IMG/VR virus record: IMGVR_UViG_2778261593_000010
Span: 1 to 4,321 of that record
DNA from: a virus
Lineage: Duplodnaviria; Heunggongvirae; Uroviricota; Caudoviricetes
DNA length: 4,321 nt
Strand: one strand, 5' to 3'
Every line of letters starts with the position of its first letter. Positions within the stretch are counted from its first letter, which is position 1. Both the position numbers and the translations under genes were made by a program. Under the pieces are notes generated by a model. It worked only from the letters and a program-made list of their open reading frames with translations. It made no database searches and was not told the origin of the DNA. Shown here in pieces: positions 1 to 4,321 of the stretch.

Positions 1-402
1 ATCGCCCCGTTCACCATTACACCTGAACTTATCGCCGCGGCGAAGGATGCCAAAAAGCGGGAAATTGAGGCATGGCGTACAGAACAGGAAGCGCAGCCGT
101 TCACGTTCAAATGGAACGGTCGTACCTGGAACGCTGGCCCCGACTCACTGGCTCGCCTTTATCCGGTAGTAATGGCGGCGAAATCCGATACGGCACGGAA
201 CGAGATGACGTGGGGTGACGCTGATAATCAACAGGTGAAACTGTCGATGCCGGAACTGGAAGAACTGGCGGCAGCAATGGCGCAGGCGCAGGTCGATCGC
301 AATGACGAGATTTATCGCCGTCAGCGACAGATGAAGGACGTGCTGGATAGCCTTAATAATCTTGCCGACATCCGCGCTTTTCAGGCTGGAGAGTCAGAAT
401 GA
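1..402 (+). CDS. 3' portion of a phage tail-fibre-assembly / tail-chaperone-like protein (DUF4376-like C-terminal region); 5' end lies outside the window
   Basis: Frame 1 is open from base 1 to the TGA at 400-402 (134 codons with no stop); the ORF track's start at 172 is only the first in-frame ATG. Codon usage is typical of enterobacteria. The W/G/D-containing stretch (FTFKWNGRTWNAG ... MTWGDADNQQVKLSMPELEELAAAMAQ) resembles, from memory, phage tail fibre assembly / DUF4376 proteins. The stop overlaps the next start (ATGA at 399-402). Confidence 0.75.
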   Translation: MAPFTITPELIAAAKDAKKREIEAWRTEQEAQPFTFKWNGRTWNAGPDSLARLYPVVMAAKSDTARNEMTWGDADNQQVKLSMPELEELAAAMAQAQVDRNDEIYRRQRQMKDVLDSLNNLADIRAFQAGESE

Positions 403-1112
403 AATGGGAAAAGGCAATTCTGCGCCCGTCAGCCATGAACATTAAATGCTCTGTGGTTTGCCTGCATCCATGGTCAGAAAATACCGGAAACATCAAACCA
501 TCGGGGCGTTATCTCAGCCCCGAAAATGCTGTATCTGCACTTTTACCCTATCTGAAAGAAAACACAGAAAAGGACATTGTGGCGCTGTTATTTTGCGCTC
601 CTTCTGCTGGCGAGTTTTTATCACTCGCCAGGCAATTTTCAGGCGCATTTCCGTTGCCGGAGGTGGGACGAATGTCCCGCATGATCTCCAGCCAGCTTTC
701 ACTGGCCATCAGCAGAATGCAAATCCCCGCCAGACCGGCAACATCACTTCCGGAACCGATAATGCTGTCGACACAGACCACTCGCAGCATGTCGCTGGCG
801 GCAACCATTGCACAGGCAGCCACTCCTGCCGCCACATCACCGGAAACATTGTCATCATCACTGCATCAGTTCATGAATGCGAGAGATAAAGCTCTACAGG
901 AAATCGCTGATCAGCAGGCCGCACTCCGGCAAAAATTTTGCCCGGTGTGGCGCTTTTGCTACAAGGGAGCCCTCAGCCAGGCCGCAGTGCTGATACAAAA
1001 AAACATCCCACACCCTGAGTGGGTTTTTACAGCTGTGATGCTGTTCGTCGGCGATGATCTCTCATCACTAAGGGAAGCACTACATGACCCAGATGATTGT
1101 CCTTGCGCTTGA
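399..1112 (+). CDS. Hypothetical protein, 237 aa, with an Ala/Ser/Thr/Pro-rich low-complexity centre and a predicted helical Ala/Gln-rich C-terminal part; function unknown (a short tape-measure-like or linker protein is speculation only)
   Basis: A 714-nt ORF; start ATG 399 overlaps the upstream stop (ATGA) with GGAGAG at 388-393 as a ribosome-binding site; its 3' end overlaps the next gene by 29 nt. Against it: several rare codons (AGA, AGG, ATA, CGA), 7 Cys, and a minus-strand ORF (548-835) sharing wobble positions with better-looking codon usage. Confidence 0.55.
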   Translation: MKWEKAILRPSAMNIKCSVVCLHPWSENTGNIKPSGRYLSPENAVSALLPYLKENTEKDIVALLFCAPSAGEFLSLARQFSGAFPLPEVGRMSRMISSQLSLAISRMQIPARPATSLPEPIMLSTQTTRSMSLAATIAQAATPAATSPETLSSSLHQFMNARDKALQEIADQQAALRQKFCPVWRFCYKGALSQAAVLIQKNIPHPEWVFTAVMLFVGDDLSSLREALHDPDDCPCA

Positions 1113-1659
1113 CGGGGAAGCCATTCTGCTGCGCAACATCACCGTCAGCGCCACCATGCAACTACCGGACAAAGATATGTCCGGACAGTCAACCAGCACC
1201 ACGAGCGCCCAGCAGGGAAGCAAGGCTAAAGAGCTGCGCGTGTCGGGGGTTATTGATTTTAACGATGAAGCTATTCTGACCCGTATTTTTCAGCTTGCGG
1301 AGGCAACAGAAAGCAATGGCGCGAAAAAAACATATCGCATTGCTAACGCTACCGCGAAGGCAATCAATATGCGACAGGGGGTATTTTCTGGTGGCATTGA
1401 TGCCACGGAACAACAGGGAAAAATGCACTGGCAGGTCACCTTTACTCTCAGGGAAAAATTAAGCGTGCCAGAGAAAGCGTCTGCACGTAGCGGTTCGCAG
1501 AAAACCATCGCCAGACAGCAGACCCAGAACGGTAGCGAACAGGCACCAGACAAAGGCATGAATACGCAAAGTTCGTTCTGGAAAAAAATCAATGATGCCG
1601 TTGGCTCTGGTCTGGATGCTGTTGGCATCGGGAGCGTGAAAGAGGAAGGGAAAACATGA
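1084..1659 (+). CDS. Hypothetical protein, 191 aa; possibly a gpU-like tail tube-initiator/tail protein (low-confidence recollection), with a Gln/Ser-rich C-terminal tail
   Basis: Clean ORF with typical codon usage; GGGA upstream of ATG 1084; stop overlaps the next start (ATGA at 1656-1659). The segments LRVSGVIDF, ILTRIFQLAEATESNG and HWQVTFTLREKL resemble, from memory, P2 gpU-family proteins; not verified. Confidence 0.8.
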   Translation: MTQMIVLALDGEAILLRNITVSATMQLPDKDMSGQSTSTTSAQQGSKAKELRVSGVIDFNDEAILTRIFQLAEATESNGAKKTYRIANATAKAINMRQGVFSGGIDATEQQGKMHWQVTFTLREKLSVPEKASARSGSQKTIARQQTQNGSEQAPDKGMNTQSSFWKKINDAVGSGLDAVGIGSVKEEGKT

Positions 1660-3353
1660 AATTGATACAACGCTGCATGATTAATGGCGAACGGGTGGAA
1701 ATTGCCGATATAAGCCTTGTTCTTACCCTGAATGCTGCCGGTCGTGGCTTCATTTCTGTTAACAATCTGTCACCCGAACACAGCCTTGCCGGCGCAATGG
1801 TACAAATTGATCTCGGCCGTGACGGTGAAGCATGGCGCTATTTCTCCGGCTACATTGAGCGCGATCAACCTGCTGAAAATGGCTCACGTCGCCTTTTTAT
1901 TCGTGAAGCGGCTGCTGTGCTGGATTTTGATTTCCCTTGCTCCATGCAACACCCGACGTTGCGGAGGGTACTCGATAATCTGGGGCGACAAAGCGGTATC
2001 GTTTTTATCACTCCGGATGCGGATTATGCCAGTATACCAACTCCCTACATCACCCACAGCGGCAGCGGAGCACAACTGCTCAGCCAACTGGGGCGAGCAT
2101 TCAGTATCAGCGATTACGTCTGGCACCCTATGCCGGACGGTTCTGTATTTGTGGGAAGCGCAGCTGATTCACGATTTGCCAGTATTACAATGCCGGATAT
2201 TCCGCAACAGTACACACTCGGGCAAGGCGGCGGAAACAGCATCGACATCATGTTCATGGAAACTGTGCGACCGGGCGTGAATCTTCCCGCCGGGCGTATT
2301 ACCCGCGTAGCCCTCAACAACGAGAAAATGACTCTGACGTGGGAGCGCCTTACCGTCACGGGCAGCCCTGTCTCCAAATCACCATTACGCAGACAGATGG
2401 AAACACAGTTCCCGGAACTGGCCAGCGGCACACTACACACCAGGCTGGCGCGCGTCATTGCACCAACGGAATCCGCCACCCTGGGCGATGTGGCCGACAG
2501 CTTCCGTCCACGCTACGCCGTGGACGTGCAACTGCTCGATGAGGACGGCAACGATAAAAGCGATACGCCTGTTTACCCGGCAGTCCCACTCCCCGTCCCG
2601 ATGGCTGGTAGCGAGGCGGGATGTTTTGCCTACCCGCCGGCAGGCACCATCGTGGAAATATCTAACATTGAAGGGCGCCCGGATAAACCTGTTATCAGGC
2701 AAATCTTACCCGCTGGCCGTAACCTGCCTGATGTAAAGCCCGGCGAACAACTGCAGCAACAGCGCGCAGAAGTGTTTCAGCGCGTCACGACTGACGGAAG
2801 CTGGCACAGAGAAACAGACCAGCAAATCAGGGAGCAGTCAGCCACCCGCACAATTAACAGTGATGCAGAAGAGCGCACCACAACAACCAGAACAACCACA
2901 GTACGGGCAAACGACATAACCAGTGTTCTGGGAACCAGCAAGCTGGCGGCAGGACAAATAGAGCACCTTACTACCGGCCATTACGCGATCGCAGCCAGCG
3001 AGCATATCCAGATGGTAGCGCAGGATTTGCTGACTAAACTCAAAGGGGCAATATCCACAATTGAGCAGGACCTGACTGAAAACGTGGGAGGCCGCAGAAC
3101 ATGCCGGGCGGACGGCGGTCTGAAGTTTACAGCCCCGACAGTATTTATTGGTCGCGGTGGCTCACGGGAAAAATCCGAACTTAATCTGCTGACGTTGTTG
3201 ATTGATATTCTGGATCTGATTCAATTGCTGGCCACGCACACTGCAAACCATACCCACAGCAACACTGGCGCACCAATGAACAGCGGCGAACTTGCCGCAG
3301 ATGCCCTGCAGGCTACGAGCCTGCGCGAAAAATACGGGGACCTTATCGCCTGA
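1656..3353 (+). CDS. Large hypothetical protein, 565 aa; candidate fused phage baseplate hub/spike-like protein (gpD/gp27/VgrG-like N-terminal region, Thr-rich linker, C-terminal HxH tip motif)
   Basis: A 1698-nt ORF with a strong ribosome-binding site (GAGGAAGGG, 1641-1649) and start coupled to the upstream stop. N-terminal segments (LVLTLNAAGRGF, RYFSGYIERD, RRLFIREAAAVLDF, TLRRVLDNLGRQSGI) resemble the Phage_GPD/VgrG N-domain from memory. The C-terminus has HTANHTHSNTGAP, reminiscent of the HxH apex motif of gpV/gp5-type spikes. No Walker A or obvious nuclease motifs. Confidence 0.85.
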   Translation: MKLIQRCMINGERVEIADISLVLTLNAAGRGFISVNNLSPEHSLAGAMVQIDLGRDGEAWRYFSGYIERDQPAENGSRRLFIREAAAVLDFDFPCSMQHPTLRRVLDNLGRQSGIVFITPDADYASIPTPYITHSGSGAQLLSQLGRAFSISDYVWHPMPDGSVFVGSAADSRFASITMPDIPQQYTLGQGGGNSIDIMFMETVRPGVNLPAGRITRVALNNEKMTLTWERLTVTGSPVSKSPLRRQMETQFPELASGTLHTRLARVIAPTESATLGDVADSFRPRYAVDVQLLDEDGNDKSDTPVYPAVPLPVPMAGSEAGCFAYPPAGTIVEISNIEGRPDKPVIRQILPAGRNLPDVKPGEQLQQQRAEVFQRVTTDGSWHRETDQQIREQSATRTINSDAEERTTTTRTTTVRANDITSVLGTSKLAAGQIEHLTTGHYAIAASEHIQMVAQDLLTKLKGAISTIEQDLTENVGGRRTCRADGGLKFTAPTVFIGRGGSREKSELNLLTLLIDILDLIQLLATHTANHTHSNTGAPMNSGELAADALQATSLREKYGDLIA

Positions 3354-3392
3354 TCACCTGGACATAAAAGCCACATAAACGCCCATCACACA

Positions 3393-3417
3393 ACGCACGG
3401 CTTCGGCCGTGCGTTTT
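3393..3417 (+). terminator. Rho-independent terminator of the plus-strand operon
   Basis: Perfect 9-bp stem ACGCACGGC / GCCGTGCGT (3393-3401 and 3406-3414) with a TTCG tetraloop, followed by a T-run (3414-3417); 40 nt downstream of the stop of the 565-aa gene. Confidence 0.8.
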
Positions 3418-3475
3418 CATATCTGCCACCTGATTAATGCGTTCTGCGCGCCATTCTGGCGCTGTATGCGCACAC

Positions 3476-3514
3476 CGCGTAAACGGTGTGACGTAAAGCG
3501 TGAGGTGACGTAAA
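3476..3514. repeat. Short direct repeats: CGTAAA three times (3478, 3492, 3509), two of them as the 10-mer GTGACGTAAA (3488-3497, 3505-3514)
   Basis: Seen directly in the sequence; spacing 14 and 17 bp; lies in the ORF-free region between the two terminators. Candidate protein-binding iterons or a recombination-site remnant. Confidence 0.4.
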
Positions 3515-3895
3515 CCGCGCTACCCCCTCCAACCCGCGGGTTTTGTGTCGAAACACTTTTTCAGTTTTCTGCCATGCAAAAATGACCGCCAGCCCGCGCA
3601 GCAACTGAGGGAAAAGCGAAGATCTGAAATTTCACGCTTTGAAATTTTTTGCAGTTTTCAGAGGGATTTTTACGATCTCATGAATGGCAGGAGAAAGAAA
3701 ACAGGCTGATATTAAAAGAGTTTTCATACTTTACGTGGGACAAGACGCGATCGCGAAAGGATCGCATCAAAAAATCTTCAAACAACGAAGCCAGACGCGG
3801 CGCGGCCTGCGTAAGATTGAGAGTCAAAATTAAACTGAAAAAAGGATCAATACCGCGCCTCGATCGCACATGACGATCTACGCAGCAACAGGACG

Positions 3896-3917
3896 AAAAA
3901 ACCGGCGCGAACGCCGG
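3896..3917 (-). terminator. Rho-independent terminator on the minus strand
   Basis: On the minus strand: CCGGCG-UUCG-CGCCGG (6-bp all-GC stem, UUCG tetraloop; plus coordinates 3902-3917) followed by six U (plus A-run 3896-3901). On the plus strand the A-run precedes the hairpin, so it terminates only leftward transcription. Confidence 0.7.
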
Positions 3918-3960
3918 CGGAAGCATGTATCAAATGCGTGATTGAATAATGTCTGCGGTC
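3896..3960 (-). ncRNA. Candidate ~65-nt small RNA transcribed leftward, divergent from the hok-like gene
   Basis: Bounded by a predicted minus-strand promoter (-35 TTGAGG, -10 TATAAA) and a minus-strand intrinsic terminator (3896-3917). The interval holds no credible ORF (only a 6-codon ATG frame). Length is similar to Sok-type antitoxin RNAs, but it does not overlap the predicted hok leader. Confidence 0.35.
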
Positions 3961-3966
3961 GGGAAT

Positions 3967-3994
3967 TTTATATCAGAAGGCTGACGGGCCTCAA
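3967..3994 (-). promoter_or_regulatory. Putative sigma70-type promoter for the leftward small RNA
   Basis: Minus strand: -35 TTGAGG (plus 3989-3994), 16-bp spacer, -10 TATAAA (plus 3967-3972). By-eye match only. Confidence 0.35.
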
Positions 3995-3998
3995 CGGA

Positions 3999-4028
3999 TT
4001 GATACAAGGGAAAAAACCAGGCTAGAAT
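3999..4028 (+). promoter_or_regulatory. Putative sigma70-type promoter for the hok-like transcript
   Basis: -35 TTGATA (3999-4004), 18-bp spacer, -10 TAGAAT (4023-4028); predicted start near 4036, giving a ~145-nt leader. Its -35 lies 4 bp from the -35 of the divergent minus-strand promoter. Confidence 0.4.
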
Positions 4029-4078
4029 TCGCGCGGGTGCCTTTCGGCTGATGGCTGGAGGGAATACCTGAAGGCCGG

Positions 4079-4153
4079 ATGTGGAAAGGCCCCGGAAAAC
4101 ACTTTTGTTTAACCGAGGCCCTAACCGTCTACCCTAAGCAAGTGATAGGTTAG
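4079..4153 (+). CDS. Possible 24-codon leader ORF in the hok-like mRNA leader (MWKGPGKHFCLTEALTVYPKQVIG)
   Basis: ATG at 4079 preceded by GAAGG (4070-4074); TAG at 4151-4153; same frame as hok-like gene and ends 27 nt before its ATG. It may be fortuitous. Confidence 0.25.
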   Translation: MWKGPGKHFCLTEALTVYPKQVIG

Positions 4154-4180
4154 CGCCTCCCTGAAAAAGGAGCAAGCGCT

Positions 4181-4321
4181 ATGTCGCAAAAATCGCTTAC
4201 GGCCATCACGTTCTGCGTGACGGCAATCCTCATCATCTGGATGCTGCACGGTTCGCTGTGCGAAATACGGATGAGCTTCTGGGGAGCGGAGTTTGCGGCG
4301 TTCTTACAGTGTAAGCAGTAA
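4181..4321 (+). CDS. hok: Hok/Gef-family type I toxin (small membrane-depolarising peptide), 46 aa, closest by memory to HokA-type paralogs
   Basis: Not in the ORF track (below its size cut-off). ATG 4181 has a ribosome-binding site AAGGAG (4167-4172, 8-nt spacing); TAA at 4319-4321. Product MSQKSLTAITFCVTAILIIWMLHGSLCEIRMSFWGAEFAAFLQCKQ has an N-terminal transmembrane helix followed by the family-defining SLCEIR motif and an E-x-AAF C-terminal segment (compare Hok of plasmid R1: ...[23 protein letters not shown]...). Confidence 0.85.
   Translation: MSQKSLTAITFCVTAILIIWMLHGSLCEIRMSFWGAEFAAFLQCKQ

Follow-up and report, generated by a model that had tools for sequence, protein, structure and literature searches.

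In the textbook hok/sok system, the antisense RNA Sok regulates the toxin gene hok only indirectly, via the reading frame mok. In R1 hok/mok/sok (parB), an AUG 7 nucleotides (nt) past a GAGG box opens a 70-codon mok in the -1 frame relative to hok, and a mutational study found that mok translation up to the hok Shine-Dalgarno (SD) sequence is mandatory (PMC9841398). The canonical mok ATG of R1, hokB and hokC lies 7-8 nt past AACCGAGGC and 57-58 nt ahead of hok. The mokB frame of Escherichia coli K-12 (58 nt upstream) shares the -1 frame of R1 mok, while mokC (57 nt upstream, in frame, with no stop between) shows that Mok can share the frame of hok, and both read across the hok start. A prophage-borne system is also on record, hokW-sokW of the Stx2 prophage Sp5 (PMC8621323).

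Here we analyse a hok-like locus at the end of a 4,321-nt stretch of viral (Caudoviricetes) DNA, positions 1 to 4,321 of IMG/VR record IMGVR_UViG_2778261593_000010, hereafter called the window. Judged from its sequence, positions 3999-4321 together with about 110 nt past the window end make up a complete hok/sok-type type I toxin-antitoxin cassette. The cassette lacks mok, as do almost all of its relatives, and the 24-codon open reading frame (ORF) found in its leader is not conserved among them. We suggest that initiation at hok may instead be gated directly by RNA structure.

Cassette anatomy and the absence of mok

The toxin gene (4181-4321, plus strand) encodes a small Hok/Gef membrane toxin like that of R1, 46 amino acids (aa) in length (MSQKSLTAITFCVTAILIIWMLHGSLCEIRMSFWGAEFAAFLQCKQ), which matches Pfam PF01848 HOK_GEF (E=4e-7; 29.9 bits, the cut-off being 22) and PHROG 251 (E=1e-22), and which is annotated as the 'Hok/Gef family protein' WP_000078916.1 of RefSeq in a 99%-identical E. 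coli chromosome. The NCBIfam models HokA and Hok match it below their cut-offs (34 versus 89 and 21.6 versus 73), which is consistent with a divergent Hok subfamily, and the window hok belongs to a distinct, largely prophage-borne subfamily of 46-aa Hok proteins. HokW shares the prophage setting and the PHROG label 'MokW-like host killing' with the window protein; it is not the same protein, however, being 51 aa long (MKQQKAM...), and its leader is of the canonical type. The module was found in 1683 of 5426 complete E. coli genomes, at up to nine places per genome. It is carried by P88-like P2-type phages at about 95% identity and, near lom, by the Stx phages 933W and VT2-Sakai at 82% identity, and Salmonella and Klebsiella encode proteins 59-76% identical to the window Hok. 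Longer database proteins (59-81 aa) were considered as N-terminally extended versions of Hok, and all proved to be C-terminal read-throughs or frameshifts.

The ratio of non-synonymous to synonymous substitution (dN/dS) averaged 0.19 over 52 distinct hok coding sequences, indicating purifying selection, and ranged from 0.14 to 0.41 for Salmonella and Klebsiella hok, where dS reached values above 1. A peptide identical to the window Hok is test construct LRP137/72_1621 in the supplement of a survey of Hok diversity (bioRxiv 10.1101/2025.08.07.668861). That survey reports toxicity for 42 of the 45 homologues it tested and names three as non-toxic, 72_1621 not being one of them. The construct list and the 42 of 45 statement, taken together, suggest that the window-type peptide is toxic when expressed.

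A sigma-70-like promoter precedes the module (TTGATA 3999-4004, an 18-nt spacer and TAGAAT 4023-4028, plus strand), with 10 of 12 matches in a promoter scan (6119-6148 of L001, the near-identical E. coli chromosome). Its -10 element is preserved among relatives as TAGATT or TAGAAT, and the predicted transcription start falls at about 4035. The Rfam model RF01794 matches the window colinearly and end to end from the same position (4035-4194, plus strand; 42.6 bits, E=2e-7), so that the span 4036-4180, originally singled out as a hok-like leader, does correspond to the predicted mRNA leader. The match lies below the gathering score of 59. Relatives of the window locus score 33-57 bits, against 118 for hokC, 110 for hokB and 89 (88.9) for R1, and these low scores point to a divergent branch of the family, while the boxes AACCGAGGCC and AAGGCCCCG, which are common to the window and the canonical loci, argue for homology of the leaders. 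Matches to RF01794, although it is named 'sok antitoxin', always fell on the hok-sense strand and ended at the hok AUG (window, L090, L103 and L104); the model thus describes the hok mRNA leader and not the Sok RNA. At its gathering threshold it misses the whole window-type Hok subfamily.

The window stops at the hok stop codon, and the 3' untranslated region (UTR) was therefore taken from L001, which is 99% identical. In this region fbi (AAGGCACCC), 58 nt past the hok stop, is a perfect 9-nt complement of the mRNA 5' end (GGGUGCCUU, 4035-4043), and the pairing of tac (GGGUGCCUUUC, 4035-4045) with fbi forms in the minimum free energy fold of the full-length RNA. A terminator after fbi gives a modelled full-length hok RNA of 399 nt, close to the 398 nt that we take to be the length of the R1 hok mRNA and that we used in folding the latter. 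The window is not alone in ending exactly at the hok stop (4321): L014, L016, L020 and dozens of IMG/VR viral contigs do the same (locus length 1141, the match plus 3 nt). Prophage boundary calls at gene ends remove the hok 3' UTR, and with it fbi and the terminator.

The RNA elements of the leader (all on the plus strand) follow R1 closely: an mRNA of about 400 nt running from 5' tac to 3' fbi, with ucb, a GAGG box, a Sok-target (sokT) hairpin, dcb (GCCUC) and the hok SD AAGGAG. Three partners are predicted for tac: 4052-4068 while the RNA is nascent, fbi once it is full-length and ucb after processing. In the folds, ucb (GAAAGGCCCCGG, 4084-4095) pairs either with tac (open form) or with CCGAGGCC at 4113-4120 (closed form). 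The GAGG box (4115-4118), homologue of the mok SD, is followed by CCCUAAC and then by CGU (4126-4128) at the canonical mok AUG position. The sokT hairpin of the open form (4115-4159), drawn from the Rfam alignment and the processed-form fold, pairs GAGGC-CUAACC with GGUUAG-GCCUC. In the SD hairpin (4151-4181), the anti-SD/dcb segment GCGCCUCC (4153-4160) faces GGAG of the hok SD (4169-4172) and GCGC at 4176-4179. From dcb to the SD there are only 7 nt in the window, whereas R1 has 16 nt, which hold a further small hairpin.

Helix pairing was counted in 38 distinct full-length relatives, the set to which all conservation and allele counts for the RNA elements refer. The tac:ucb, ucb:GAGG, sokT, SD-hairpin and tac:fbi helices are 95-99% paired. 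For tac:fbi, 98.5% of cells are paired; tac:ucb is 98% paired, with compensatory changes in three pairs, and ucb:GAGG 97.7% paired, with one compensatory pair. The leader segment GGAGG at 4057-4061 is invariant in all of them, which would be explained by a metastable nascent tac hairpin with 4052-4068, seen in the leader-only fold. The same segment is complementary to the anti-SD CCUCC (4156-4160) and could act as an anti-anti-SD.

A Sok-like antisense RNA of about 57 nt is predicted on the minus strand at 4084-4140, with a free 5' tail, a hairpin formed by GGCCUCGG and CCGGGGCC, and a terminal UUUCC. Its predicted fold has -23.2 kcal/mol (z -2.7), the 5' tail has about 14 unpaired nt and the U-tail is short. 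It matches the annotated SokB and SokC in position and length, with Sok of hokB and hokC likewise about 41-49 nt upstream of hok. The putative sok promoter (4147-4175, minus strand; -35 TTGCTC 4175-4170, a 17-nt spacer, -10 TAACCT 4152-4147) was read from the sequence, and a generic promoter scan did not call it. The -10 element, AGGTTA or AGGATA on the hok-sense strand, is invariant and is positionally homologous to the R1 AGGATA (= TATCCT) adjoining GCCUC, so that the putative Sok -10 occupies the same place as that of R1.

Where R1 has mok, the window has no overlapping frame. As the original prediction had stated, both alternative frames over the hok start are closed and hold no start: one contains TGA 4143-4145 and TAG 4146-4148, with no ATG, GTG or TTG ahead of the hok ATG, and the -1 frame contains TAA 4135-4137 and TGA 4162-4164, with no start until GTG 4258. 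The in-frame path to hok is closed by TAG 4151. The loop of the sokT hairpin holds TAA 4135, TGA 4143 and TAG 4146. The box AACCGAGGCC (4111-4120) is kept, with CGT in place of the canonical mok ATG. A hidden mok with an alternative start was also considered (SD-preceded GTG or TTG in the leader, GTG 4142 with 3 codons, CTG 4068 and CTG 4161), and none of these is conserved. Both the closed alternative frames and a leader ORF of 24 codons are within statistical expectation: when the 146-nt leader was shuffled 5000 times with its dinucleotides preserved, 47% of the shuffles likewise had no alternative-frame ATG or GTG ORF crossing the hok ATG and 17% held an ATG ORF of at least 24 codons.

In 79 of 81 distinct modules of the subfamily there is no ATG, GTG or TTG 3-11 nt past GAGG, and the absence of mok is, by this comparison, a trait of the whole subfamily and not a quirk of one allele. 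Since the mok start is missing subfamily-wide, control must differ from the textbook mok coupling, as had been proposed from the window alone. We found no account of a mok-less Hok subfamily or of the window module in the literature searched, which did not include several classic papers, so that an earlier mention is possible. The survey of Hok diversity (bioRxiv 10.1101/2025.08.07.668861) states that it did not analyse Mok, on the ground that Mok is difficult to call.

The 24-codon leader ORF

The leader ORF (4079-4153, plus strand; ATG 4079, TAG 4151-4153, 24 codons, MWKGPGKHFCLTEALTVYPKQVIG) is a real ORF, read directly in the hok frame and ending 27 nt (4154-4180) short of the hok ATG, just as first described. 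Unlike hokB and hokC, the window has its sole ATG 102 nt upstream of hok, and TAG 4151 lies in AGGTTAG, an invariant sequence shared by the sokT stem and the predicted sok -10, which the stop overlaps. A strong ribosome-binding site had been claimed for hok and one of its own for the leader ORF: the former stands (AAGGAG, 4167-4172, 8 nt from the hok ATG), while the latter is weak (GAAGG, 4070-4074, at 4-nt spacing). The further proposal, that the ORF replaces mok as the control element, failed when the homologous loci were aligned, since its start, frame and end all vary and neither the ORF nor its stop is conserved.

Over 78 distinct sequence contexts from the clade that bears the ATG, the leader ORF ranges from 6 to 79 codons, occurs in all three frames and ends between -86 and +134 relative to hok. 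An ORF of 19 codons is found in 29 contexts, one of 61-79 codons in the -1 frame, overlapping hok, in 11, and the window type, 24 codons with its stop at -30, in only 10. Versions of 17 codons (seven contexts), 21 codons (five) and 8 codons in frame 0 with a stop at -81 (four) follow, and a further seven contexts comprise two more 8-codon alleles and one each with 6, 10, 15, 22 and 29 codons; the conserved ATG is absent from the other five contexts. The Stx-phage allele, as carried by EDL933 or Sakai, has a leader ORF of 8 codons. These differences stem from substitutions and 1-nt indels in hairpin loops, and Hok is 100% identical between alleles of every leader-ORF state.

The ATG itself is confined to one branch. 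All alleles of the E. coli, Shigella and E. albertii type carry it, in the context ATGTGGAAAGG, whereas Klebsiella and Salmonella members have AGAAAGACGAAGG or AGAAAAGCGAAAG in its place, and their leaders hold no ATG and no SD-preceded GTG or TTG at any position. As AGAAAGACGAAGG is also the hokB leader sequence, the leader ATG is derived. The hokB leader further shares CAGAAAGACGAAGGCCCCG with the Klebsiella and Salmonella members, and its AACC(C)GAGGCC box is identical to that of the window. The invariant bases beside the ATG are conserved at least as well as the ATG itself. The G of the ATG, G4081, pairs with C4048 atop the tac:ucb stem and covaries (CG to UA), and codons 2-5 lie inside the 10-bp tac:ucb stem. 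The leader peptide has no Pfam or PHROG match, and we rejected it as a protein family, because only MWKGP is constant, and that stretch is the ucb RNA segment. The arrangement first proposed for the window resembles that of another type I system, ldrD/ldrX-rdlD, in which translation of a short leader ORF is described as being coupled to the toxin and blocked by the antisense RNA (review PMC8167048). However, ldrX overlaps the toxin initiation region and belongs to the described mechanism, whereas the window ORF ends 27 nt before hok and varies in extent among relatives.

From these alignments we conclude that the leader ORF is preserved neither as a coding unit nor as a coupling unit, and it probably does not control the toxin. 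It would instead be a by-product, its AUG having arisen in the E. coli/Shigella/E. albertii lineage beside the tac:ucb stem, and its frame and stop would drift freely via loop substitutions and 1-nt indels. Loci that have no leader start still keep Hok under purifying selection, which on this comparative evidence argues that a mok-independent route to Hok translation must exist in the subfamily.

A putative structural switch and its rivals

The best explanation in our view, to which we assign a probability of about 0.5, is a complete mok-less hok/sok cassette with structure-gated direct initiation at hok and the leader ORF as a by-product. Our best guess from the folding models is that the anti-SD/dcb segment alternates between the hok SD and GAGGC, and that Sok resets it. 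In the full-length RNA, tac would pair with fbi and ucb with GAGG, while the anti-SD/dcb segment (4153-4160) would lock the hok SD in a hairpin of -12 kcal/mol; as only 7 nt separate dcb from the SD, against 16 nt in R1, dcb would itself be the anti-SD. Upon 3' trimming, tac would capture ucb, and the freed GAGGC and dcb would form the Sok-target hairpin, stripping the anti-SD from the hok SD and allowing ribosomes to initiate directly at hok. Pairing of Sok at 4084-4140 would place the anti-SD back on the SD and would also create an RNase III substrate. The 'mok SD' GAGG is presumably retained because it forms one arm of both alternative helices. A functional likeness may exist to aapA/IsoA of Helicobacter (cited in PMC9841398), in which an anti-SD in the primary transcript locks the toxin SD until 3' processing frees it, and the processed RNA is the target of the antisense RNA. 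There is, however, no sequence relationship, and the antisense RNA of the window would bind upstream of the SD and not over it.

The states of this switch were modelled with ViennaRNA for the window allele. In the full-length RNA, with tac:fbi and ucb:GAGG formed, the probability of anti-SD:SD pairing was 0.87 and that of sokT 0.01, so that the hok SD is sequestered in this model, a point that the original prediction had left for folding to decide. The 3'-trimmed RNA (tac:ucb, P=1.0) gave 0.20 and 0.77, respectively, and blocking the Sok site (4084-4140) in the trimmed RNA returned these values to 0.88 and 0. The local free energy of the SD hairpin is -12.2 kcal/mol in the window and between -11.6 and -13.9 kcal/mol in 37 of the 38 alleles.

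Several results weigh against such a switch. In the unconstrained processed form, sokT exceeded a probability of 0.5 in just 8 of the 38 alleles, the SD hairpin mostly staying closed, and enforcing tac:ucb raised this to just 20 of 38. In the processed model the hok AUG is still paired, with 4299-4301. The sokT helix (97.8% of cells paired) shows no compensatory changes, and the SD hairpin (97-99.6% of cells paired) shows one-sided G-U changes only, none of them compensatory. For R1, moreover, the same software does not arrive at the processed structure that has been published, so that the folding models carry little weight either way. A folding comparison with R1, in which the R1 hok SD paired with 321-323 in all states, was not relied on because one of its enforced helices was offset by 1 nt, and a thermodynamic proof of the switch, which works for the window allele and fails to generalise, was kept as weak support; the models back the switch only partly. 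In R1, Mok translation removes blocks of the kind that an SD hairpin of -12 kcal/mol presents. In the window, a ribosome stopped at 4151-4153 would cover the anti-SD arm, so that a coupling role is conceivable in the window allele itself.

This last point leads to a reading in which the leader ORF is a working substitute for Mok. Translation from 4079 to the UAG at 4151-4153 would melt the anti-SD arm and let the hok SD, 14 nt downstream, load, and Sok would block it by pairing from 3 nt past the AUG. The geometry of the window fits, the stop lying at the 5' edge of the SD hairpin, and the R1 precedent also demands translation of mok up to the hok SD (PMC9841398). AUG 4079 is unpaired with a probability of 0.66 in the processed model, it is adjoined by the 3' end of the predicted Sok, and it is present in all E. 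coli-clade alleles. However, the ORF reaches the anti-SD arm in only about 28% of contexts (the 24-, 29- and 61-79-codon types), and the remaining contexts stop 38-86 nt upstream, with all three frames represented. The weak SD at 4-nt spacing, the burial of codons 2-5 in the 10-bp stem, an ATG conserved no better than its neighbours, and the Salmonella and Klebsiella loci that keep hok under purifying selection with no ATG at all speak against it too. On the comparative data, a Mok surrogate is unlikely as a general mechanism.

A different history would have the E. coli-clade ancestor possess a -1-frame Mok-like ORF, sharing its frame with R1 mok and mokB and starting at the AUGUG site (AUG, or GUG 4081), with the window a silenced copy inactivated by the nonsense codons TAA 4135 and TGA 4162. 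Indeed, 31 of the 78 contexts have a -1 frame that runs open from this site past the hok start. Its long versions stop 7 nt ahead of the hok stop, similarly to R1 mok, and in the window the frame is open from 4165 to 4312. Yet only 11 of the 31 start with AUG (61-79 codons), the other 20 having just a GUG that overlaps a better AUG of another frame, and Salmonella and Klebsiella members have no such start. The inactivating stops sit in hairpin loops, and substitutions there are neutral for the RNA. Whether or not the frame is open, Hok is intact and identical, and an open stretch of 33 codons would, to judge from the shuffles, not be unusual by chance; we regard this history as improbable. Least credible of all is a decaying relic that lost mok, never translates hok and hitch-hikes on prophages. 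The lack of a canonical mok, an SD hairpin that for many alleles is very stable in every modelled state, and several database entries with frameshifted or read-through hok would all suit such a relic. It is countered by purifying selection on Hok across large synonymous divergence, by the retention of all RNA elements, some with compensatory changes, by the occurrence of the module in close to a third of complete E. coli genomes at multiple places, and by the probable presence of the peptide among the constructs reported as toxic.

Genomic setting and implications

Two tandem hok modules about 490 nt apart, each with its own leader and fbi, are present in Salmonella contigs (hok copies at 1201-1341 and 1691-1831 in L099, and at 1201-1341 and 1695-1835 in L100). 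Downstream of the hok module, the E. coli chromosome has a DUF4875 gene and then flk (L001 6301-7347). In Salmonella (L100-L102, 1201-2240) the order is hok, a DUF4875 homologue (39% identity, E=4e-48) and a DUF1131 gene, with a YafO toxin gene upstream of hok in place of phage tail genes. The hok-DUF4875 pair may be a conserved chromosomal islet at a prophage junction, and not part of the phage proper. In a scan of genome contigs that gave six loci, copies of the E. coli type, with a protein identity of 72-98%, turned up in the GTDB assemblies L004, L005 and L008, which are labelled as a Planococcaceae metagenome-assembled genome, a Vagococcus sp. and Xanthomonas pisi (an 857-bp contig); all three look like enterobacterial contamination.

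Elsewhere in the window, a strong intrinsic terminator (ACGCACGGC-TTCG-GCCGTGCGT, then TTTTCAT; 3383-3410, plus strand) starts 30 nt past a gene for a Vgr-like baseplate spike (1656-3353), and the hok module is thus a separate transcription unit. Divergent from hok, a candidate small RNA of about 65 nt lies on the minus strand (3891-3994), with a promoter-like site (TTGAGG 3994-3989, 18 nt, TAAAAT 3970-3965) and a terminator hairpin (GCCGGCGTTCGCGCCGG, 3918-3901, then a T-run). It has no Rfam match, and the 640-nt spacer that holds it is present, unannotated, in 50 E. coli genomes. A match to RsmY (1002-1143, minus strand) scored 18.5 bits (E=0.22), the gathering score being 57, lies inside a coding sequence and was treated as chance.

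A sub-gathering Rfam score and a 3' UTR cut off by prophage calls leave the regulatory parts of this cassette unannotated in thousands of genomes. The wider claim, that the whole abundant cluster of 46-aa MSQKSL... Hok proteins works without any Mok and with Sok as an RNA switch, strikes us as falling slightly short of an even chance. If it were true, it would extend to about one third of complete E. coli genomes, to Stx and P2-like phages, and to Salmonella and Klebsiella. Sok would then silence the toxin by sequestering the GAGGC arm, thereby returning dcb/anti-SD to the hok SD, and by RNase III cleavage, and the conserved 'mok SD' would survive purely as a structural element. The locus raises the question of how a toxin can be silenced by an antisense RNA that binds some 30-90 nt ahead of the toxin SD, and a common natural subfamily that has all of the RNA elements and no mok would offer a way to ask which parts of the hok/sok paradigm are essential.

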